The notes under the pieces: generated by a model
What the model was told of the DNA's origin: nothing
Database searches by the model: none
What the model saw: the letters and a program-made list of their open reading frames with translations, nothing else
In this document: positions 2,878 to 48,350 of the stretch, piece after piece
How the letters are laid out: every line of letters starts with the position of its first letter
Numbering within the stretch: position 1 is the first letter of the stretch
Program-made: the position numbers and the translations under genes
Sequence record: PQ511146.1
Source of the DNA: Escherichia phage NHEP1
Strand: one strand, 5' to 3'
Length of the DNA: 64,000 nt

Positions 2878-4997
2878 AAATTGTAAAACGGGACGGTAGA
2901 GAAGAGGTCTATAACGGAGTTAAGGTAATCAAGGCGGCAGAGTCCGCCTTACTTGAGTCTGGGCATACTGAAGAAGAAGCTTACCGGATCGCTTGTACGG
3001 TTAATGAAGTTGTTGCCAACAATCTACCAACCGACCAGTGCACGATCTCTGTAAAAAATATCCATATCCTTGTTGAAGATGCTCTTATGGATATGGGTTT
3101 AAAATGTGCAGCCAGAGAATATATCCAGTATAGACAGACAAGAGATAATAACAGAGAGGCAGGTGGAAAACTGCTTGCAGATATTAGTGGCTTCTTGGAT
3201 CGAACTTGTGATGAATTTACAAAAGAAAACGCAAATAAGCCCACTAATCATGTACATACTCATCGTGACCTGCTTGCAGGTATCCTTAGCAAACACCTTG
3301 CATCAACACAGATACTGCCAGATCGTGTCTCCGAAGAGCACAACAAGGGATTCATCCATGTGCATGATCTTGACTATCTGATCAGTCCGTTAACAAACTG
3401 CTGTTTGGTGAATTATCCGGATATGCTGGAAAACGGATTCAACATTGGCAACGCCCATGTCAGTAAGCCGAAGTCAATAGGGGTTGCAACAACAATCCTC
3501 AGCCAAATCTCTAGTGCAGTAGCTAGTGCTCAATATGGTGGTCAGACCATGAGCCATATTGATCATTACCTGGCGCAGTATGCTGAAGCAACCTATGAGA
3601 AGAATCTTAAATTTTGTCAGGAACATTGGTTGCCGGATGCTGAGACTGTTGCAATGCAAATGACGGATAAAGACGTGTTTGATAGTATGCAAACTTTGCT
3701 ATACCAAATCAATACGTTAACTTCTGTCAACGGGCAAACCCCATTCATCACATTAAGTTTAGGACTGGATACCTCAATCTTTGGTAGAATGATTACCAAA
3801 AACTACCTGAAAGTCCACAAAATGGGTCTTGGTGAAGAACGTATCACACCTGTGTTCCCTAAGGTGCTGTTCTTCCTGGAGGAGGGTATCAACATGAACC
3901 CTGGGGATCCTAACTATGATTTGAAACGATTAGCTCTGGAATGCTCTGCAGAGCGGATTTATCCTGACTTCGTATCTGTACCACTAAATAGAAAAGTGAC
4001 AGGTTCAACAGAAGGTAATGTCACAAGCATGGGTTGCCGGAGTTTTCTTAGCAAATACAATGACTTGGAAACAGGAGAGGAGAAATACCTTGGCAGATTT
4101 AACTTAGGTGTTGTTAGCCTTAACCTACCAATGATTGCGGCAAAAGCTAAAACGGAAGGTGTTGATTTCTTTGCAGTTCTTGACGAGTACTTGGATCTGG
4201 CATACGAGGCTCACCTTGTAAGGGTTAACCGTCTAAAAGGAACAAAGGCAGGGCAGAACCCCATCATGTGGTGTGAAGGAGCCCTTGCTCGCCTGGATCC
4301 TGAAGAGAGCATTGATAAACTCTTCTATGACGGGTATGCTTCCATAAGTATTGGGTATATTGGTGTGTATGAAACCTGCCAGATTTTAGGCAGAGAGGGA
4401 GACAAGTCCTTAGCTCTTGGGATCCTTCAACACATGAAAGACGCTTGTGATCGGTACAAAAAAGAAAGTGGTCTGGCATTCAGCTTGTACGGCACTCCTT
4501 CAGAGAGCTTGTGCTATAAGGCTGCAACATGTCTAGATCGTGAATACCCTGAAGTGTTGAAGCACGAGCACGAATACCTTACCAACAGTTTCCACCAACC
4601 CGTGTGGATCAATAGCTCACCTTTTGACAAGTGGAAGTATGAGGAAGGTTTTGCTATGATCTCTTCTGGCGGCAACATTGGATACATAGAAACACCTAAC
4701 CTGAAAAACAACCTGGATGCTTTGGAATCCCTTGTCGATTTCGGGTATAAACACATTATGTATTTTGGTATTAACCAACCTGTGGATAAATGTCTTAAGT
4801 GCGGATTCTCTGGTGAGTTCAGTGCAACAGCTAAAGGCTTTGTATGCCCAGAGTGCGGAAACCATGAAGAGGGAACGATCAGTGTGATTAGACGTGTATC
4901 TGGGTATCTGTCCAGTCCAAACTCCCGCCCTTACAATAAGGGTAAGCAGGCTGAGGTTATAGAACGGGTTAAGCACTACGGAAGTTGTGGTTGCTGA
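2874..4997 (+). CDS. nrdD: Anaerobic ribonucleoside-triphosphate reductase (class III)
   Basis: 707 aa; C-terminal zinc ribbon CLKCGF...CPECG and glycyl-radical motif RVSGY. Confidence 0.9.
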   Translation: MKIVKRDGREEVYNGVKVIKAAESALLESGHTEEEAYRIACTVNEVVANNLPTDQCTISVKNIHILVEDALMDMGLKCAAREYIQYRQTRDNNREAGGKLLADISGFLDRTCDEFTKENANKPTNHVHTHRDLLAGILSKHLASTQILPDRVSEEHNKGFIHVHDLDYLISPLTNCCLVNYPDMLENGFNIGNAHVSKPKSIGVATTILSQISSAVASAQYGGQTMSHIDHYLAQYAEATYEKNLKFCQEHWLPDAETVAMQMTDKDVFDSMQTLLYQINTLTSVNGQTPFITLSLGLDTSIFGRMITKNYLKVHKMGLGEERITPVFPKVLFFLEEGINMNPGDPNYDLKRLALECSAERIYPDFVSVPLNRKVTGSTEGNVTSMGCRSFLSKYNDLETGEEKYLGRFNLGVVSLNLPMIAAKAKTEGVDFFAVLDEYLDLAYEAHLVRVNRLKGTKAGQNPIMWCEGALARLDPEESIDKLFYDGYASISIGYIGVYETCQILGREGDKSLALGILQHMKDACDRYKKESGLAFSLYGTPSESLCYKAATCLDREYPEVLKHEHEYLTNSFHQPVWINSSPFDKWKYEEGFAMISSGGNIGYIETPNLKNNLDALESLVDFGYKHIMYFGINQPVDKCLKCGFSGEFSATAKGFVCPECGNHEEGTISVIRRVSGYLSSPNSRPYNKGKQAEVIERVKHYGSCGC

Positions 4998-39988: not shown

Positions 39989-40309
39989 TTAATCGTCAAG
40001 TTCAAAATAGATTTTAACAGCTTCATCAAAGATTGGAATCCCGATGTTGTTGATAAGCTGCCAAACTACCATATCTTTTCCTGGATCTGGGAGAATGTCA
40101 ACCTTTCTCCATGCGCTATATATCCAGTTCGGACCGCCTTCTGCACTAACTGGTAGATTTTCACCAGCTTCTTGTAAATACTTATACAGCAAAAGGTATT
40201 CTGGGTACTCTAGAACACTGTCCTCTGTAGTATATAGCAGTTCACGGTATACTTTCAAGAATCCTGTTGGGTTGATGTTTTCAGTCTTCATTTGCTGCTT
40301 CTCCTGCAT
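39989..40309 (-). CDS. Hypothetical protein
   Basis: Track ORF 106 aa. Confidence 0.5.
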   Translation of the reverse strand: MQEKQQMKTENINPTGFLKVYRELLYTTEDSVLEYPEYLLLYKYLQEAGENLPVSAEGGPNWIYSAWRKVDILPDPGKDMVVWQLINNIGIPIFDEAVKIYFELDD

Positions 40310-40685
40310 TCATCAGATCTGCCATAGCGTCACCAACGAAGAGGACAACCACGTCGTTGACAGCGTCAGCATCATCTTTATTGATGTTGCTGAATTTGGG
40401 GCACACTGCAATGACCATATAGACCCCGTTGCCCAACTGAACAGTGCGTGTAGTGCACATTAGTGTGGTGCTTGTGCCTTCTTTAAAGGCAAATCCTTGC
40501 AGACGTTCTTCCAGAGAGTCACCTGTGGATTTCAACAAGGCAAGATCGCCCAATGCGTAGGTAGTGTCCTCATAGGTCAGTCCAGAGGTCAATGTTGCCT
40601 TTCCATCAGAAACTATAATAACCCCATCGGCACCGTCAAGCTCAGAGGCTTCAAAGATATTAATATCCCAAATGTTTTTCATCAC
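40281..40685 (-). CDS. Hypothetical protein
   Basis: Track ORF 134 aa. Confidence 0.5.
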   Translation of the reverse strand: MMKNIWDINIFEASELDGADGVIIVSDGKATLTSGLTYEDTTYALGDLALLKSTGDSLEERLQGFAFKEGTSTTLMCTTRTVQLGNGVYMVIAVCPKFSNINKDDADAVNDVVVLFVGDAMADLMNAGEAANED

Positions 40686-41002
40686 GCTTCCTCGTCATCT
40701 AATGGGTTGAAGATTTCACCGAAGTATTCTAAGACTTCCAGCTCACGGGTGGTGCAGAAAACACAGTCCCCGTTGTCATCTTCGATAACGGCCTCTTTAC
40801 CAAGAACATCAACTTCAAATTCGTCGTTTAACAGAACGGAACCTGTGTAAACTTTATCTGCCGTGCAGTCCCGAAAAGCAGAGTCCTTCTCCAAGTAGTC
40901 TGGCTTAACCTTGGCTTTAATTCGTTGATATTGTTTGGTCATTGCTGTGGTCCCCTTTCGTTTTGATAGGGCCATTATATTAGGCCCTATCGCTATTGTC
41001 AA
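40682..41002 (-). CDS. Hypothetical protein (paralog of 41006..41260)
   Basis: Shared AF(R/K)DCT and DD(N/E)GD.V(F/W)CT motifs. Confidence 0.5.
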   Translation of the reverse strand: MTIAIGPNIMALSKRKGTTAMTKQYQRIKAKVKPDYLEKDSAFRDCTADKVYTGSVLLNDEFEVDVLGKEAVIEDDNGDCVFCTTRELEVLEYFGEIFNPLDDEEA

Positions 41003-41005
41003 GTA

Positions 41006-41260
41006 TTAATGCTCAGGTTTTACAAAAACTACTTCGTTAACAGTGCACCAGACAGAATCCCCTTCATCATCTTTAAAGGTAAGACACTGGGCCGAGTTTT
41101 CCAACTCATCAAGTTCTTCTTGTGATAAATAGGTCCCTTCTTCCAGAAGGGCTTTTACCAGAGGGTTCTCACAAAACTCTGCTTCATAAATTGCACCGAG
41201 TGTGCAATCTTTAAAAGCTCGGTCATTTGCAACGCATTCTGGCTTCAAAGTAATTTTCAT
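41006..41260 (-). CDS. Hypothetical protein (paralog of 40682..41002)
   Basis: Shared motifs with the upstream neighbour. Confidence 0.5.
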   Translation of the reverse strand: MKITLKPECVANDRAFKDCTLGAIYEAEFCENPLVKALLEEGTYLSQEELDELENSAQCLTFKDDEGDSVWCTVNEVVFVKPEH

Positions 41261-41335
41261 CTTGGCGGTCTCCTTAATTATTTAAAATCAACGCTCTGTC
41301 TGTGTGGGGTATCTTACATCTACCCCAACTTGTTG

Positions 41336-41734
41336 TCAACGACTATTTTCAATCATCCACCAAGGATCGAGATAAGTTTGTTGACTTTTTGCCCACTGGC
41401 AAACTTCATTGTACATCTGGATCTCTTTGTCCGTCAGTTCACGAATAGGCTCATCTATACCCTCATTTTTGTGGTAATCCCAGTCGGCATCGATTTCCCA
41501 CAACCATGACTTACGATCTTCACGTTTACGCACACAGAAGTCCCCAGGACGGCCTGCCAGTGCATTTAGGAACTCGTTCTCCGCTCGCTCCTGGAGAATA
41601 CTAAGGAGCAAAACGTTGGAGCATGACCGTAAAATATGCTTCAGCTCACAATCATCGATCTCAACTTCAATACGTTGCTTGACTGTGTGGGTACCTTTTA
41701 CTAACATTCTACCTCCTCTAGACGAACTCTGCAA
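41336..41734 (-). CDS. Hypothetical protein
   Basis: Track ORF 132 aa; consensus promoter upstream. Confidence 0.5.
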   Translation of the reverse strand: MQSSSRGGRMLVKGTHTVKQRIEVEIDDCELKHILRSCSNVLLLSILQERAENEFLNALAGRPGDFCVRKREDRKSWLWEIDADWDYHKNEGIDEPIRELTDKEIQMYNEVCQWAKSQQTYLDPWWMIENSR

Positions 41735-41912
41735 GGGTTGTGTTGTTCACTGCACCGCAGTAGATGGAGTATCCCAACCCGTTAGGGTGTAGAAACCACG
41801 GCACACCTTGATCATCCTTCACGTATACATCTCCATTTTCCGTAAAGGGCCAATACTCTTCTCCAAGGGTAAAATACCTACTCATACCTTCAGCCAGATA
41901 CTTTACTTTCAT
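41718..41912 (-). CDS. Small protein, DDxGxxW(F/Y)L paralog family
   Basis: KDDQGVPWFLHPNGLGYSIY motif shared with the next two ORFs. Confidence 0.45.
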   Translation of the reverse strand: MKVKYLAEGMSRYFTLGEEYWPFTENGDVYVKDDQGVPWFLHPNGLGYSIYCGAVNNTTLAEFV

Positions 41913-42136
41913 AGATCCTCTTCAACAGCTACAAACTTGGCAAGTAGGGTGGTTCCATAGATATGATACTCACCGTTTGCCAGATGGGAGATAAACCAGG
42001 CAACACCGTCCTCGTCTTCGATCATATTGTTTCTGCGATCCTCGTCGTAATAAACCTTGTAGACCTTACCTTCTTCAAAGAATGATAGGTCTGTCATCTT
42101 CTCTTCTACAAATGTCGCTTTAACCAAAGTTGTCAT
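41909..42136 (-). CDS. Small protein, DDxGxxW(F/Y)L paralog family
   Basis: DEDGVAWFISHLANGEYHIY. Confidence 0.45.
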   Translation of the reverse strand: MTTLVKATFVEEKMTDLSFFEEGKVYKVYYDEDRRNNMIEDEDGVAWFISHLANGEYHIYGTTLLAKFVAVEEDL

Positions 42137-42507
42137 TGATCTGCCTCCTTCTTGTTGAGCCGGAACACTGCAATAATAGCATTTCCAAGATGCAGTGTCA
42201 AATCATTTCCCAGATACCATAACATTCCACGGTCATCTTTAATGAAAGGGTAACAATCCGGTGCCTTCCAGACATTATACACTTTGCCGACCTGAAAGAA
42301 ATCAGGCCCTGTTGGAATTTTAGTACCGGGCCATACTTGGGACACCTGAACGCATTCTACCTGCATAATGACAGGGATAGTCATGGAGGTAAATGTTTTT
42401 GTTGGTTCTACTACCATAAAAGTCTCCTCTCTGTCTAACAACACTTCCGTGTGTTGATAGTTTACATTAGTGACAATCACCCCAGTTACGACCGCACAAG
42501 TATTCAC
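42133..42507 (-). CDS. Small protein, DDxGxxW(F/Y)L paralog family
   Basis: KDDRGMLWYLGNDLTLHLG. Confidence 0.5.
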   Translation of the reverse strand: MNTCAVVTGVIVTNVNYQHTEVLLDREETFMVVEPTKTFTSMTIPVIMQVECVQVSQVWPGTKIPTGPDFFQVGKVYNVWKAPDCYPFIKDDRGMLWYLGNDLTLHLGNAIIAVFRLNKKEADQ

Positions 42508-45500
42508 CTGTGATCTGGAACGGAACGCCCATCATTTTAGAAGCCTGCCAGAAGCAATGCACCACCATTTCGCCCACAGGGCTCCAGATAAGCTCAAGCT
42601 TTCCGTCATCATTCAAGATAGGATCGTATACCGTATTTCCATCCTTGTCAACCACTTCGTTTCCGTCCTCATCTTTGCGTGCCTTTTTGTACTTATGACC
42701 GTCGAACACATGAAGTTTAGCCTCTTGTTGGGCTTTAAATGTTTCCAGCTCTTCAATTGTGTCGAAGGTGTATACGGTTTTATACTTAGGTGTGTCAGGC
42801 ACTTGAAGCTGATATTCGTCATGGTAATAGATAATACGACGAACACCCTCATCATACCATCCACGCTTCACCATCTGGTGGTGCATGAGGATTCCGACCA
42901 AGTCGCACAACGATGCACCGCCATTTTGCTGATATGCATTAAGCAAAGAGTGTTTAGAGCGGGTCCAAATGGCATGCCCGTCAAAAGAGTAGATAAATTT
43001 CTTACCTGTTGCTTCCCAGAATTTCTCCAGATCCTCTTTACGCCCCTTAAGGCCCGGGTTGGCATCCCAGAGAGCATCAATTACTCTCTGTCCAAGTTCT
43101 GGAGAGATATCTAGCATATCTGCAACTTTATCTTTTTGTGCCCCGTACATAACCCCATATGTGACAGGCTTACCATCGTTACGGGAAATCTCCTTGCCTG
43201 CTACAGAAGAGTAAGCTTTGGCGTTATTACAGTTACCGCACACTGCCACTTTACCATTCCTTCTCACAATGATTGCTCCAGAAGGGACGGTAACGCAATA
43301 AACCAAAGAACCGCTCACCTCGACAGACTCTTTAGATAGTGTCAGCAACCCTGCTCTCTGTTTGCTACCAATCGTGATTCTGTGCTGTACGGAACGACCT
43401 TTTTTGTGAATCGCCACCGTATTATTCCGTAAACCACACTGAGTAGCCAGCGCAGACACAACCTCTACAGATTTCTTCCTGCACCCGGCCTGAGAGTAGT
43501 AGGCAACTTTTCCACCTTCGGAAGATACCCACCCGTCCCAGTTAGATAAAGAAGCTATAAACAGGTTTTTAGATTCTTTATCAAGGTCCATCAGGTTGTA
43601 GGTGAAATCCTTATTGCTGTCCAAAAACTCAAATACCCAGGACGGAACGTGGAATTGGAACCTTCTCGCCAGTAAGCCCCCTTTTGTGGTTTTCCCGCTC
43701 TGCTCTACATAACTAAGGCTTAGAGCAGAAAAAGTATCTAAAAGCGTTGCAACTTTTCTGCCCTTCCCGACCTGAATCCTGCACACGATGCTGCCGTCCT
43801 TATTTGTATGCAAGTGCCCATCATCGTGAATAGCAATAAGCAAATTAACCTGGGCAGGAGATAAGGTTGTATTCCCATAAAACTCTGCCGCATGGATAAA
43901 CCTTCTTCCTGAATTAGACCCTTTACCTGCTTTCAGGTCTTTTGCCAAATCTTCAAACAATTTATTGCTTCTGTGATCCACGGTCAGCATCCTGTGTTGA
44001 TCTGTAACCATAAAATCCACACTGCTGTTGTGGAAATGATACATATCCCCACAATAACTACGCTTAACGTAATTTAATGGAGTAACAAGGTTCATCGACG
44101 AGGTGTTGTGATCGTACTGGAACACCTGTGTTCCCGGATCAAGATCTTCAAACCTCACCCACCCTTTCTCCGTGAGAATTTGTGTATCTCCTGAATAACA
44201 GTGTGCATCGCCGTTACTTACAACATCATAATACAGACCGTTGTCAAACTCAAAGGCACCCCAGGCCCCGATGAGCTGCTCTAAGTTGGACCCGTCAATA
44301 CCGATCTCAAAGTATCCTGGAGGAACACCCCACAGACTACGCATCTCTTTACCCATAACCACTTTAGGAGATGGTTTAGGCATGTTTGCACAAATACTAT
44401 GTTTCTGTCTGGAAGTGTTTGTTAATCCAGAACTTTTAGCAGGAAGCTTGTGGTCAATCTTCAAACGTGGATGATTAAGAAGACCAGTATCAACCTTATC
44501 TTCCTTGATTGGATCAAGGACCGATCTGCGGTTTCGCAATGATAACCACAAAACGATATCTTTAGCCATCTCTCCGTTCAATTTTTCAAGATTCGGGCAC
44601 AGGTGTCCAAACGTATCTTTCAGTTGCGGAGAAGTAATAAGCGCTCTGGCTTTTCTACGTATCTTCCCAAACACTTCCTTTTTAATCCTTTCTGAGTTAG
44701 GGAAGCTTCGGAACTTATGCACAGTTGTCTGGAACTTGGCATCAGTTTTGTTCCAGAAGTTGATAATTAGATCACAATACTCTGACTCCAAAAGCTCGTC
44801 CATATATGCATATACTCGTGCATCAACATCTGCATCAGGTAAAGCTTTCTTCTTGCTGTCTTTAGTTACATCTTTAGTTCTCCACATTGTTGGGAGCCAA
44901 CCAGCACTGATCAGGTATCGCTTGATGTCGTCCTGATTGCTGATTTTCATAGGTATCTTGCAGTCAGGCATTCGCTTCTGCTGTAGGTCACTTATCGCCT
45001 GATCCATCAGCTCTTTAGGTAAAGGGTGTGGTGTAGAAGTTCCTTTGATATACCCCCTCAAGAAATCAGCCATCTTATCGGGGTCTTTACAGCCCATCTC
45101 TTCACACCATTTTATCCCCATCTTACTTACATCCCCTGTGGAGGTAAATGCTCGCTTAGGAGGAGCTTTGAACTCTAAAGCACTCATGTCCACAGGGTAG
45201 CCAAGCTTGTCTTTTAACCATTTCCAACCATTATTGGAGATTGTCCCATCTTGGTTAAACGGCTTTTCAGGGAACTTAGGCCGCTGAGACATTGATAACT
45301 CTTTTAAAGGAAGTTGTGGTTCAACACGATCAGCGATCTCTTTCATCCACGCATCGCAACGGTCACGTAAAGCAATAGCCCCATCTATGTCGAAATACAC
45401 CCCCTGTCGAGCCTGCAGCTCCATCAGGAAGTGCTGTAACATGCCTCGGCGTAATGCGTTCTTCCAGGTGATCTTCTTGAAGCCTTTCGGCTTCTCTTTG

Positions 45501-46213
45501 GCAGGATCGTACATAAAGTTCTGCATGTCAGATTTGCCGTAGAATACACCTTTTGATTCCGCTACCAACTCCTTCCAGAGCAACTCCTGGATGATAACGT
45601 CCTCGAACACACGATCCACATACTTCCACAGTGGAAGCTCACGCCAGTCATCGATTTGAACTTTCTGGTTACCAAGGGCATAGCCCCATGCCATAAGGCC
45701 ATGAGGCCCAACAGGCTGCATTTTCTTGGTAACTGGATTGAATACTGCGTCCGGACAACCTTTTGGCAAAGGGCGGTCAGGCCACAAGATTCGGCTCATC
45801 GCTAACGTATCAAACAGATTAACCGGGTGGTCGTTGATAGTCCCCATGCATTTAGGATCACGGAACATATCAAAATGAATACCGGATAATCTTTCCATCA
45901 GCATAAAGTCGTAACTGTAGCAGTTATGACAGTTCAAAGCCGTAGGTGACCAGTCTGAATTGCCTGTAAGCCAACCTTCCAACTCTGAAAAATCTGCTAT
46001 GCGAGCCTCAAAATCTGTATAAAGGGTCTTCTTTGCCAGAATGAAGTTCTTAGCTTTCTCCACATCCTCTTCAGAGTAGTGTGTGCGGTCATTTAGAGGA
46101 AGGAACAGCATAAAACGGTTCTTATTCAGCTCTTTAAACAAACCGCAGTGATAATAAAGATCTGGGTCTTCCAGCAGGCCAGAGGCCTCAAAATCGAACG
46201 ACCACATGCTCAT
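42467..46213 (-). CDS. DNA polymerase, family A (T7 gp5-like), intein-containing
   Basis: N-terminal exonuclease motif FDFEASGL and YHCG; motif A-like GIDGSNLEQ...FDNG; motif B-like NAK...YGVMYGA; motif C-like YYHDEYQ; AAGGAG RBS. Confidence 0.85.
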   Translation of the reverse strand: MSMWSFDFEASGLLEDPDLYYHCGLFKELNKNRFMLFLPLNDRTHYSEEDVEKAKNFILAKKTLYTDFEARIADFSELEGWLTGNSDWSPTALNCHNCYSYDFMLMERLSGIHFDMFRDPKCMGTINDHPVNLFDTLAMSRILWPDRPLPKGCPDAVFNPVTKKMQPVGPHGLMAWGYALGNQKVQIDDWRELPLWKYVDRVFEDVIIQELLWKELVAESKGVFYGKSDMQNFMYDPAKEKPKGFKKITWKNALRRGMLQHFLMELQARQGVYFDIDGAIALRDRCDAWMKEIADRVEPQLPLKELSMSQRPKFPEKPFNQDGTISNNGWKWLKDKLGYPVDMSALEFKAPPKRAFTSTGDVSKMGIKWCEEMGCKDPDKMADFLRGYIKGTSTPHPLPKELMDQAISDLQQKRMPDCKIPMKISNQDDIKRYLISAGWLPTMWRTKDVTKDSKKKALPDADVDARVYAYMDELLESEYCDLIINFWNKTDAKFQTTVHKFRSFPNSERIKKEVFGKIRRKARALITSPQLKDTFGHLCPNLEKLNGEMAKDIVLWLSLRNRRSVLDPIKEDKVDTGLLNHPRLKIDHKLPAKSSGLTNTSRQKHSICANMPKPSPKVVMGKEMRSLWGVPPGYFEIGIDGSNLEQLIGAWGAFEFDNGLYYDVVSNGDAHCYSGDTQILTEKGWVRFEDLDPGTQVFQYDHNTSSMNLVTPLNYVKRSYCGDMYHFHNSSVDFMVTDQHRMLTVDHRSNKLFEDLAKDLKAGKGSNSGRRFIHAAEFYGNTTLSPAQVNLLIAIHDDGHLHTNKDGSIVCRIQVGKGRKVATLLDTFSALSLSYVEQSGKTTKGGLLARRFQFHVPSWVFEFLDSNKDFTYNLMDLDKESKNLFIASLSNWDGWVSSEGGKVAYYSQAGCRKKSVEVVSALATQCGLRNNTVAIHKKGRSVQHRITIGSKQRAGLLTLSKESVEVSGSLVYCVTVPSGAIIVRRNGKVAVCGNCNNAKAYSSVAGKEISRNDGKPVTYGVMYGAQKDKVADMLDISPELGQRVIDALWDANPGLKGRKEDLEKFWEATGKKFIYSFDGHAIWTRSKHSLLNAYQQNGGASLCDLVGILMHHQMVKRGWYDEGVRRIIYYHDEYQLQVPDTPKYKTVYTFDTIEELETFKAQQEAKLHVFDGHKYKKARKDEDGNEVVDKDGNTVYDPILNDDGKLELIWSPVGEMVVHCFWQASKMMGVPFQITGEYLCGRNWGDCH
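43232..44200 (-). mobile_element. Intein (about 323 aa) with LAGLIDADG-like endonuclease motifs inside the polymerase gene
   Basis: Begins CYSGDTQIL right after GDAH; T..H block; LIAIHDDGHL and FIASLSNWDGW motifs; ends ...VAVCGN before +1 Cys; extein boundaries by alignment-by-eye. Confidence 0.75.
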
Positions 46214-46219
46214 ATACAG

Positions 46220-46260
46220 TTCTCCTTAAAGGGGAGGCGGTTGTACTACCCCTCCCACTC
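46220..46260 (-). terminator. Stem-loop between primase-helicase and polymerase (terminator or attenuator)
   Basis: Minus strand GGGAGGGGTAGTACAACCGCCTCCCC followed by TTTAAGGAG. Confidence 0.4.
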
Positions 46261-46271
46261 TTGGTTAAACA

Positions 46272-48350
46272 TTAAAAAGGTGTTTCGTCGTCTTCAAAAC
46301 CAGGAACGTGGTTAGAGGACGGATCATCATACTGAAGGTCTTCCTGTGTGTCAACAGGGTTAACAGCAGGGGTTATAACCTTATCAGCCACAACCTTGCC
46401 CACAGGTGTTTCTACAACTGCATGCTCCTGATCCTCAAACATAGCCTGAGGTCTCCAAACAACCTCCCCACCTTCCCCGTCTGTAAACATCTGCATTTCT
46501 TTGTCCCAGTACCAGTTGCTGGCATCATAGAACTTGCCTGTGTGGGGATCCATAACTAGAGTGTCCGCAATACCTAAGGTTTTTGCTGGGCGGTTTTTAA
46601 GACCTACCAGTCGGACACGTCCACGGGAACGATCCACCATCTCCTCTGCCTCTACCCCGACAACCACCCAGCTAAGTTGCTCCAATCCGGCACTACCGCG
46701 AAGGTTCTCTTTTCGTACAGGGTACCAGAAAGGTAACGGATTTCCATCCTTATCCTTCGGAGGTACAATCTCTGTGCGCTTCAGGTGAGCAATCACCAAG
46801 ATAAACACATTAAACTGCTTACAGAACGCGGCTAGTTGAGTCATAGCCATGTCAAGCTCTTTACGCTCATCCTTAACATTAAGCCCTGAAATCACCATAG
46901 ACAGGTGATCCAGCACAATGTAACGGCAGTGATACAGGCACACCATTTGTTTAAGCTTAGTGATCAGCTCATCTACAGGGATGGAGCCGAAATGCTTGAA
47001 CACTTTGATTTTTCCGGCCTTGGCCCAAGATTGATGAATCTCAGCGTGCTCCTGATCGGTCAGGAACTGACTGGGGTCTTCAACAAACTCTTTAACATCA
47101 AACCCCAGCTGGTTAGCGTACAGAGAGTTGATTGCTTCCTCAGGATCCTCTTCAAGGTGAATCAGGCACAGGCGATCATCCTCTTCATAATCATCAGCTT
47201 TAGGGCATGTTGGATCCATCAAGTATCTTGCAATGCAATGTTCCAGCTTCTTGGCTACAGTTGTTTTACCACCGCCAGACGGGCCTGTCAGCATCATCAA
47301 GGTGCCTTTGTGGAGTCCTTTCAGCATCTTCTGCAGTTTAGGGAACTCTGCACTGATATCTACGCCATTGGAAGTCTTCTTACGAAGAGATTCAATGGAG
47401 AAGTCTTCTAAATCAGATACAGCATCAGGCACATATTTGACTGGGTGACGGAACATGTTGACAATATCTTCCAGCTTTTTAGCCTTCAGCATGTCACGAA
47501 TATCTTTTACACCATCAGGGTCGTTTACCTCACCCGGGTATTCCACGTGGTAAACGTTATCAGCCATCAAAAATGCTGCGATATTATGTGTGGCTTCAAC
47601 ACCTTTAATAACGTGTTTTTGCTTCTCTACCTCGTTAGCTGCATCGTTGTCCATTGCAAGGACCACTGTTCCGTAGCTACGGATAAATTTCTCATTGTTC
47701 GCAAAAGTGTCTACGGCGTTTGCACACCCACAGTTAATTCCAACAAAAGGCAGGCATGGTTTTCCTGCCAGATCCCCGCCGTTGATAACTGCATCAATCC
47801 CATCCTGGACTTCTTTAGCCCACTGCTTCACCTTCGCTGGGGCTTTAGCATTGGTGAGAATTCCTTTTACTTGTATCTGATATGCAGCCTGCCACGCTGC
47901 AATAACATCTCCTTCTCCCTCACAAACGTTAATCTGCTTACGGTTGTTGGAGGATGCACACAGCTTTTGACCAAACATCTGGGAGTTGGCCTTTACTATG
48001 CCAACAACCGAGAAATGGCCCCTTTGCTCTTTAGGGATTGTCCAGTCACGCTTTTTAAAGCCAGATAGATTACCGTAGCGGTCATAATACGGAAAGTAGG
48101 TGGCAGTAACAGTTACACCATCCTCTTGGGATAGCGATGATCGTACACCAAAATATTGTGCAGCCATCAGTCCAATATTTTGTTGTGGAACAGGGACAAT
48201 TTTAGTGTTTTCTAAAACAGTCTCCACAGTTTCAACTTCTTTTTCATCACGATAGTCTCGTTTCACACTCCCCCCACTTTTATACTTAGTTGCTTTCGGG
48301 TTTGGCTCACCGAAACGGTTGTATGCAGATGCCATGAATTTACTGCCCAT
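46272..48350 (-). CDS. DNA primase-helicase (TOPRIM plus DnaB-family helicase, T7 gp4-like)
   Basis: TOPRIM-like VCEGEGD and LAMDNDAAN; Walker A GPSGGGKT; Walker B-like FILVIAHL; AAGGAG RBS. Confidence 0.8.
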   Translation of the reverse strand: MGSKFMASAYNRFGEPNPKATKYKSGGSVKRDYRDEKEVETVETVLENTKIVPVPQQNIGLMAAQYFGVRSSLSQEDGVTVTATYFPYYDRYGNLSGFKKRDWTIPKEQRGHFSVVGIVKANSQMFGQKLCASSNNRKQINVCEGEGDVIAAWQAAYQIQVKGILTNAKAPAKVKQWAKEVQDGIDAVINGGDLAGKPCLPFVGINCGCANAVDTFANNEKFIRSYGTVVLAMDNDAANEVEKQKHVIKGVEATHNIAAFLMADNVYHVEYPGEVNDPDGVKDIRDMLKAKKLEDIVNMFRHPVKYVPDAVSDLEDFSIESLRKKTSNGVDISAEFPKLQKMLKGLHKGTLMMLTGPSGGGKTTVAKKLEHCIARYLMDPTCPKADDYEEDDRLCLIHLEEDPEEAINSLYANQLGFDVKEFVEDPSQFLTDQEHAEIHQSWAKAGKIKVFKHFGSIPVDELITKLKQMVCLYHCRYIVLDHLSMVISGLNVKDERKELDMAMTQLAAFCKQFNVFILVIAHLKRTEIVPPKDKDGNPLPFWYPVRKENLRGSAGLEQLSWVVVGVEAEEMVDRSRGRVRLVGLKNRPAKTLGIADTLVMDPHTGKFYDASNWYWDKEMQMFTDGEGGEVVWRPQAMFEDQEHAVVETPVGKVVADKVITPAVNPVDTQEDLQYDDPSSNHVPGFEDDETPF

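Follow-up and report, generated by a model that had tools for sequence, protein, structure and literature searches.

A DNA polymerase gene with an insert

We examine here the DNA polymerase gene of Escherichia phage NHEP1 (sequence record PQ511146.1), of which a stretch of 64,000 nucleotides (nt), hereafter the window, was analysed, and a 323-residue insert in that gene that is very probably an intein with a LAGLIDADG homing endonuclease, a functional and mobile member of a phage-borne family marked by Cys1, a cysteine at position 4 of splicing block F (F:4) and a (T/S/C)-Gly-Asn terminus. The gene is one uninterrupted open reading frame (ORF) with matches to PHROG DNA polymerase families, and megablast places it among rV5-like Escherichia coli phages (Vequintavirus), finding 118 records that are 80-99% identical. 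A further label, 'Campylobacter phage', is borne by sixteen records (e.g. C15, A12a and A142) with a polymerase whose identity to the window gene exceeds 90%; these are probably mislabelled or derived from contaminating coliphages.

With the insert removed, the gene encodes a protein of 925 amino acids with a calculated mass of 106.5 kDa, which is colinear with the polymerases of relatives lacking the insert and to which T7 gp5 structures align at an expectation value (E) of 9e-16 across motifs A, B and C. Motif B has the pattern R-x3-K-x3-Y, motif C (HDE, at precursor residue 1131) aligns with the HDE of T7, and FDNG...NGDAH/C of the window aligns with FDNG...NGDIH506/T507 of T7 (a slash marks the insertion point throughout). 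This supports, from sequence alignment, a T7-type family-A DNA polymerase as the host protein, and the expectation of the initial annotation that the exteins rejoin into a T7 gp5-like protein is borne out.

The insertion point falls between the equivalents of His506 and Thr507 of T7 gp5, at a conserved D-x-H/T site. The initial annotation had placed the insert in the polymerase, correctly, and right after motif A, which is too close: it lies 31 residues past Asp640 of motif A and 17 residues ahead of the O-helix Arg. According to the established T7 structures, the segment of gp5 from His506 to the O-helix contacts the incoming deoxynucleoside triphosphate. Since the insert splits the active site, its removal would be required for a working polymerase, whose activity almost certainly needs an unbroken chain across this point.

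Boundaries and splicing anatomy

The insert begins with CYSGDTQIL directly after the N-extein sequence ...VVSNGDAH and ends with ...GKVAVCGN, which is followed by Cys995 as the +1 residue; Cys672 of the precursor is thus Cys1 of the intein. The coordinates, length and junction residues of the initial annotation are exact, and its reading of the insert as an intein is upheld by Cys1, the T-x-x-H motif of block B (Thr66-Asp-Gln-His69), blocks F and G, the terminal Asn and Cys+1, as well as by the absence of the insert from most relatives and the occurrence of homologues in unrelated proteins. The splicing (Hint) domain consists of intein residues 1-105 and 286-323. Block G of the intein closes with Cys321 (position G:5), the penultimate Gly322 and the terminal Asn323; the penultimate His that is common, though not obligatory, in inteins is absent here, with Gly322 in its place. 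The positions of all features are collected in Table 1.

Table 1. Coordinates in the window of the polymerase gene, its insert and their motifs, in the direction of the coding strand
Feature	Coordinates	Strand	Basis
Polymerase precursor ORF, 1248 aa, 142.3 kDa	42467..46213	minus	Single ORF; PHROG DNA polymerase families; T7 gp5 alignment
N-extein, aa 1-671, C-terminal end ...VVSNGDAH; last His equivalent to T7 His506	44201..46213	minus	
Polymerase motif A (EIGIDGSNLEQ), catalytic Asp640 equivalent to T7 Asp475	44276..44308	minus	T7 gp5 alignment, residue check
Intein-linked tract, N-extein side, 3 silent substitutions in last 10 nt	44201..44210	minus	Comparison with ECP2303
Intein (very probable), 323 aa, precursor aa 672-994, 969 nt, 35.8 kDa	43232..44200	minus	Absent from intein-free alleles; full-length homologues; AlphaFold model
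Splicing block A, intein residues 1-14 (CYSGDTQILTEKGW); Cys1 as putative N-terminal nucleophile	44159..44200	minus	Cys1 in 119/119 family members; Hint_2 match to residues 1-35, sub-threshold
Splicing block B, residues 62-72 (DFMVTDQHRML), with Thr66, His69, Arg70, Met71	43985..44017	minus	Family conservation; H-R-M as in AceL NrdHF
Predicted LAGLIDADG homing-endonuclease domain, about intein residues 106-285, between blocks B and F	43346..43885	minus	Model, Foldseek, dN/dS
LAGLIDADG motif 1, residues 120-128 (LLIAIHDDG), Asp127 putative catalytic	43817..43843	minus	Family consensus LLIAxQADG
LAGLIDADG motif 2, residues 214-223 (FIASLSNWDG), Asp222 putative catalytic	43532..43561	minus	Family consensus FIEELxxWDG
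Splicing block F, residues 299-308 (LVYCVTVPSG), Cys302 at block F position 4	43277..43306	minus	Family conservation
Splicing block G, residues 317-323 (KVAVCGN), with Cys+1 codon (43229..43231)	43229..43252	minus	Direct sequence reading
C-extein, aa 995-1248 and stop codon, N-terminal CNNAKAYSS...	42467..43231	minus	
Intein-linked divergent tract, C-extein side, 21 substitutions in 48 nt	43184..43231	minus	Comparison with closest intein-free allele; includes +1 codon
Motif B / O-helix (RNDGKPVTYGVMYG); Arg1011, Lys1015, Tyr1019 equivalent to T7 Arg518, Lys522, Tyr526	43142..43183	minus	T7 alignment

Presence, absence and a footprint of homing

The insert DNA was found in only six phage records, those of Mangalyan, JEP1, 241Ecol014PP, EPFV3-03/2025, YP-6 and VB-EcoM-WM, while a probe spanning the joined exteins found the uninterrupted junction in 109 genomes, an intein-minus share of 109/115 among related genomes. 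In the closest relatives of the window gene (S127 BCL3, ECP2303, rV5_ev168 and FV3) exactly 969 nt are missing and the polymerase is a colinear protein of 925 amino acids, and removal of the insert restores the host motif GDAH/xNNA.

The intein is 99.2-99.8% identical to those of four other intein-bearing phages, whose exteins are 89-97% identical, and a polymerase fragment of a remoter relative shows 75% identity in the exteins and 88% in the intein. Outside the insert, the window polymerase gene is 97-99.6% identical to that of the intein-free ECP2303, except in a tract that runs from -10 to +48 nt around the insert, downstream of which the two are again nearly identical. Within the C-extein part of this tract the +1 codon, CAA (Gln) in all intein-free alleles examined, has become TGT (Cys) in the intein-bearing alleles, and six further residues are altered just upstream of the O-helix. 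The divergent extein tract of about 58 nt is present in 6/6 intein-bearing and 0/109 intein-free genomes, and we found no intein-free allele with the intein-type flank, as precise loss of the intein would leave, in the 109 genomes. Taken together, these patterns indicate a recent horizontal spread by homing, in which double-strand-break repair would have carried short co-conversion tracts along with the intein. The tract would both provide the nucleophile that the intein requires and alter the presumed target site, which in the ECP2303 or rV5 allele is putatively at or near GACGCGCAC/CAAAACAAT, within a stretch presumed to lie around GTAAGTAACGGGGACGCGCAC/CAAAACAATGCTGAGGC. No foreign base composition was seen in the intein, its guanine-plus-cytosine content being 44.8% against 45.0% and 45.8% in the exteins.

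Two lineages of the intein are found in the Vequintaviruses, the WM allele being 88% identical to the window allele in DNA and 92% in protein. The synonymous divergence (dS) between WM and window is greater in the intein (0.55) than in the N-extein (0.34), from which it follows that the residence of the intein in the Vequintaviruses, or its exchange with relatives, goes back further than the five near-identical copies would suggest.

Predicted structure and the endonuclease domain

An AlphaFold model of the intein, built on an alignment of 27 sequences, has a predicted local distance difference test score (pLDDT) of 94 and a predicted template modelling score (pTM) of 0.91, and it places a Hint fold in the insert. 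Its best full-length PDB matches in Foldseek are the endonuclease-bearing inteins TliVMA, PI-SceI, PI-PfuI, PhoVMA and PI-TkoII (E 3e-14 to 7e-9, query-normalised TM-score 0.61-0.71, probability 1.00), and over the endonuclease domain it matches I-DmoI, I-SceI, I-Tsp061I and the bI3 maturase with E of about 1e-5. In the model this domain has the secondary structure alpha-beta-beta-alpha-beta-beta, doubled.

The LAGLIDADG-like segments pointed out in the initial annotation, LIAIHDDGHL (residues 121-130) and FIASLSNWDGW (residues 214-224), fall on the two most conserved endonuclease motifs of the family. In motif 1, Ala123 is conserved in 104/119 family members, Asp127 in 115/119 and Gly128 in 101/119; in motif 2, Trp221 is conserved in 113/119, Asp222 in 118/119 and Gly223 in 110/119. 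Both motifs end in an acidic residue followed by Gly, and they are separated by the expected spacing of about 90-100 residues. When the domain is compared with the WM allele, 49 synonymous and 20 non-synonymous differences give a ratio of non-synonymous to synonymous divergence (dN/dS) of 0.083, while the Hint parts give 0.05-0.12; by these counts, purifying selection acts on the endonuclease domain across the two intein lineages of the Vequintaviruses.

A widespread family of phage inteins

When the 323 residues are searched by tblastn, they find end-to-end matches at 20-31% identity inside unrelated phage proteins: ribonucleotide reductase alpha and beta, nicotinamide phosphoribosyltransferase (NAMPT), PhoH, RtcB, thymidylate synthase (ThyA/Thy1, including that of Corynebacterium phage P1201), primase-helicase, DNA methylase, nucleotidyltransferase and the gp51 phosphoesterase of mycobacteriophage Bethlehem. 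An exhaustive HMMER search with the insert alone gives 7650 matches at E<=1e-3, 2116 of them at E<=1e-10, and among the best 150 of the 7650 nearly all span query residues 1-323 and lie as an internal segment in proteins of widely differing length; judged by these scores, the homology is far beyond what chance would be expected to produce. A word-indexed protein search with the insert came back empty, which reflects a limit of sensitivity, as the HMMER search did find relatives. PHROG matches of the insert to PhoH-like proteins, ribonucleotide reductase and thymidylate synthase were set aside as being of no functional meaning, the profiles themselves containing inteins, and such assignments are a pitfall for automatic annotation.

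The same family occurs at the same D-x-H/(T/S/C) site in metagenomic family-A polymerases (P0007, P0009, P0014, P0058, P0141 and others), uncharacterised sequences whose exteins match Pfam DNA_pol_A and are 44-50% identical to those of the window. The inteins of P0009 and P0007, at 37-40% identity, are the closest outside the Vequintavirinae; the metagenomic polymerase inteins mostly have Thr or Ser at +1, where the window has Cys.

Conservation was counted in an alignment of 119 full-length family members, with 206 intein copies sampled for position 1. Cys1 is found in all 119 aligned members and Cys is the first residue in 206/206 copies, within a block A consensus of C-[FY]-x-x-D-T-E-[IV]-L-T-x-x-G-W. 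In block B, Thr66 (110/119) and His69 (119/119) are conserved; block F has the consensus V-Y-C302-V-T-V-P, with Cys302 in 119/119 and Pro306 in 103/119; and block G has R-R-N-G-K-x-x-V-[T/S/C]-G-N, with Asn323 in 109/119. Position G:5 is Thr in 49, Ser in 37 and Cys in 21 of the 119, so that termini read TGN, SGN or CGN, and the +1 residue across family copies is Cys in 99, Ser in 69 and Thr in 23.

The penultimate Gly had been singled out as atypical. That holds for inteins in general, and fails as an oddity of this copy: in the window's family Gly is the rule, occurring in 116/119 aligned members and in 188/191 copies with a scored C-terminus. Since a Gly-bearing homologue, the Bethlehem gp51 intein considered below, splices efficiently, Gly322 gives no ground to doubt activity.

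Proposed mechanism of splicing and homing

The translation product would be a 142-kDa precursor from which the Hint domain excises itself. In the first step, an N-S acyl shift would occur at Cys1, with Thr66 and His69 straining the scissile bond; the N-extein would then be transferred to Cys+1. Cyclisation of Asn323 would follow, for which, with no penultimate His, Arg70 (block B position 11, B:11) probably substitutes, and a final S-N shift would leave a normal peptide bond between His671 and the Cys. The products would be the 106.5-kDa polymerase and a free intein of 35.8 kDa, and trypsin would be predicted to release from the spliced polymerase the long junction peptide SLWGVPPGYFEIGIDGSNLEQLIGAWGAFEFDNGLYYDVVSNGDAHCNNAK. 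That the window intein splices is what we would expect from the experiments on its homologues and from the viability of its carriers, all six intein-bearing relatives being isolated, propagating phages.

In a mixed infection, the double-motif LAGLIDADG endonuclease, with Asp127 and Asp222 as putative catalytic residues, would cut intein-free polymerase alleles. Repair from the intein-bearing allele would then copy the intein together with flanks of about 10 nt on its upstream and about 48 nt on its downstream side, a tract that would carry the Cys+1 codon and destroy the target site. Site-specific cleavage of the intein-free allele is indirectly suggested by the short linked tract, by the better conservation of intein than exteins and by the low dN/dS of the endonuclease domain.

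Splicing class and alternative explanations

Several observations weigh against a functional, mobile intein of this mechanism, and they are taken up here with the alternatives on which they bear. On its defining features the intein is best filed, by sequence, as class 1. Class 3 was considered and not taken up: a nucleophile, Cys1, is present at position 1, B:12 is Met71 instead of Trp, G:5 is Cys321 instead of Thr, and the +1 residue is neither Ser nor Thr, so that of the class-3 features tested the Cys at F:4 (Cys302) is the one that is found. Because Cys1 and the block-F cysteine are equally invariant (119/119), a block-F-dependent route in the same intein is a possible, though unlikely, alternative, in which either Cys302 attacks the N-terminal junction to form the branched thioester, as in class 3, with Cys1 dispensable, or the chain is relayed from Cys1 to Cys302 to Cys+1. 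The closest solved relative, the AceL NrdHF intein, is experimentally class 3, aligns with the N-terminal Hint portion of the family profile (E=1.7e-13), is found by Foldseek with the model at TMt 0.83 and shares S/T(B:7), His(B:10), Arg(B:11), Met(B:12), Cys(F:4) and the Pro four residues on; its T(G:5)-Gly-Asn fits the family pattern, both C-terminal His residues are missing in each, and the Thr, Ser or Cys at G:5 of the family resembles the class-3 triplet. The invariance of Cys302, taken with this closeness to a proven class-3 intein, leaves the first chemical step uncertain. Against the block-F route stand the Cys1 of all 206 copies, whereas position 1 of class-3 inteins is a non-nucleophile and dispensable (PMC5222942), the lack of Trp at B:12, a +1 residue that is Cys, whereas it is nearly always Ser or Thr in known class-3 inteins (PMC5222942), and the assignment of the homologous gp51 intein to class 1 by Kelley et al. 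(PMC5050341).

A related and rather doubtful idea is that this large, mostly phage-borne family of 7650 matches has a chemistry that needs two cysteines and forms a mechanistic subclass apart from ordinary class 1, in which there could be a thioester relay from Cys1 through Cys(F:4) to +1 or a redox switch between Cys1 and Cys(F:4). If so, the family would be a living intermediate, and class-3 inteins such as AceL NrdHF would have arisen by loss of Cys1.

The functional, mobile class-1 intein is also to be set against an intein that splices while its endonuclease is inactive, so that it spreads only via ordinary homologous recombination between co-infecting phages, which we regard as improbable. 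In its favour, three conserved endonuclease positions are altered in the window (Gln125 to His, Ala126 to Asp, and Glu217, conserved in 100/119 of the family, to Ser), so the endonuclease could be weakened; and the intein is rare (6/115 genomes) despite a well-conserved target site, so homing may be inefficient or recent. An inactive endonuclease sits poorly, however, with the retention of both catalytic Asp residues, of the K-x-R-K motif and of Lys197, with a domain dN/dS of 0.083, with an intein better conserved between phages than its host gene, and with so short an import (the intein and about 58 nt) into an otherwise ECP2303-like gene, as break repair predicts.

That the insert stays in place, either as a tolerated polymerase subdomain or as a dead insertion inactivating this polymerase copy, is hardly credible: scores in domain libraries do fall below threshold (Pfam Hint_2 gives 23.6 bits against a cutoff of 28.4 and NCBIfam TIGR01445 14.4 against 24.5, and Pfam Intein_splicing and LAGLIDADG_3, which each match 5 of the 27 aligned family members, do not match the window sequence itself), but homologous inserts lie in unrelated enzymes, the stretch that runs from the His506 equivalent to the O-helix is interrupted, all the splice residues are retained and show purifying selection, the examined region (window 40000-48000) revealed no second DNA polymerase gene, and absence from 109 of 115 related genomes, a check that the initial annotation had called for, rules out an ordinary subdomain.

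Annotation and significance

None of the five GenBank records examined (Mangalyan, EPFV3-03/2025, VB-EcoM-WM, JEP1 and YP-6) annotates an intein, nor does the feature name in the sixth; in the six intein-bearing genomes the gene is labelled only 'DNA polymerase' or 'hypothetical protein', and a search of one literature library found no paper reporting an intein in an rV5-like or Vequintavirus polymerase. LAGLIDADG inteins in phage genes for replication and nucleotide metabolism are well known, and the family with a Gly-Asn terminus has been described in mycobacteriophages. The window intein is thus real and unannotated, but it belongs to a large and already known kind of phage intein.

Its presence would mean that in a subset of rV5-like coliphages, a group widely considered for biocontrol and therapy, the essential replication polymerase is made as an inactive precursor that needs splicing. 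The locus also offers an unusually clean natural example of homing, with 6 genomes against 109 and a linked tract of about 58 nt that supplies the +1 Cys. The family combines the N-terminal Cys of class 1 with the block-F Cys of class 3 and a Gly-Asn terminus, and an E. coli phage would be a handy system in which to study the roles of these cysteines, while compact (<=323 residues), fast-splicing Gly-Asn inteins are potential tools for protein engineering.

In many relatives the polymerase gene has a second interruption, a group I intron at about the position corresponding to window 42820/42821 (coding-sequence position 3393). The intron has no ORF in EPFV3-03/2025 and JEP1 (Rfam Intron_gpI, 64.7 and 73.7 bits), and in FV3, Mangalyan and VB-EcoM-WM it holds an HNH homing-endonuclease ORF, the gene being annotated as two polymerase ORFs. 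The window has the intein and lacks the intron, and all six intein-bearing GenBank phages are interrupted at the intron site, so that the intein-plus, intron-minus combination was unseen in that GenBank collection. No Rfam families and no tRNAs were found in the window. Downstream of the polymerase, an ORF at 42133..42507 (GTG start, 124 residues) shares 41 nt with the 3' end of the polymerase gene; as relatives annotate a shorter gene of 285 nt here, its true start is probably further in.

Comparison with known inteins

The two-domain architecture and the fold are common to the window intein and to PI-SceI (1VDE), PI-PfuI (1DQ3) and the Tli and Pho VMA inteins (7QSS, 7QSU, 7QST), which its model matches in Foldseek at E 3e-14 to 1e-11. 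These canonical class-1 inteins share Cys1, the terminal Asn, Cys+1 and a double-motif LAGLIDADG domain between blocks B and F. They are only 11-15% identical to the window intein and differ from it in that their penultimate residue is His and their F:4 residue usually Asp, and they are larger, with an extra DNA-recognition region, whereas the window intein is compact at 323 residues.

The intein in gp51 of mycobacteriophage Bethlehem (a recombination directionality factor, or RDF, and metallophosphoesterase) is a full-length homologue of 317 residues (tblastn E=3e-5) at only about 20% identity. It shares the layout of Cys1, T-x-x-H, LAGLIDADG domain, Cys296 at F:4 and Thr315-Gly316-Asn317, and differs in host protein and phage group, in having Ser instead of Cys at +1, Val instead of Met at B:12 and Thr instead of Cys at G:5, and in an endonuclease domain in which the K-x-R-K motif, kept in the window, is not conserved. 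Splicing of this intein goes to completion and is slowed by the change G316H, and cloning of its endonuclease in the reporter construct proved toxic (Kelley et al. 2016, mBio, PMC5050341).

Among solved structures, the AceL NrdHF intein (PDB 6ZGQ) is the best sequence relative of the Hint domain, with E=1.8e-4 from the single sequence and 1.7e-13 from the family profile. Its His68-Arg69-Met70, Cys124, Pro128 and Thr144-Gly145-Asn146 correspond to His69-Arg70-Met71, Cys302, Pro306 and Cys321-Gly322-Asn323 of the window intein, and neither has the penultimate or the block-F His. It is a class 3 intein that starts with Ala and in which Cys124 forms the first branched thioester; Arg69 (B:11) aids Asn cyclisation, and G145H abolishes activity through a clash with this Arg (Hoffmann et al. 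2020, PMC7891396). The two part at position 1, which is Ala in AceL NrdHF and Cys in the window, at +1, which is Ser and Cys respectively, and in their organisation: AceL NrdHF is naturally split into two halves that flank a free-standing GIY-YIG gene, whereas the window intein is contiguous and its LAGLIDADG domain is nested within it.

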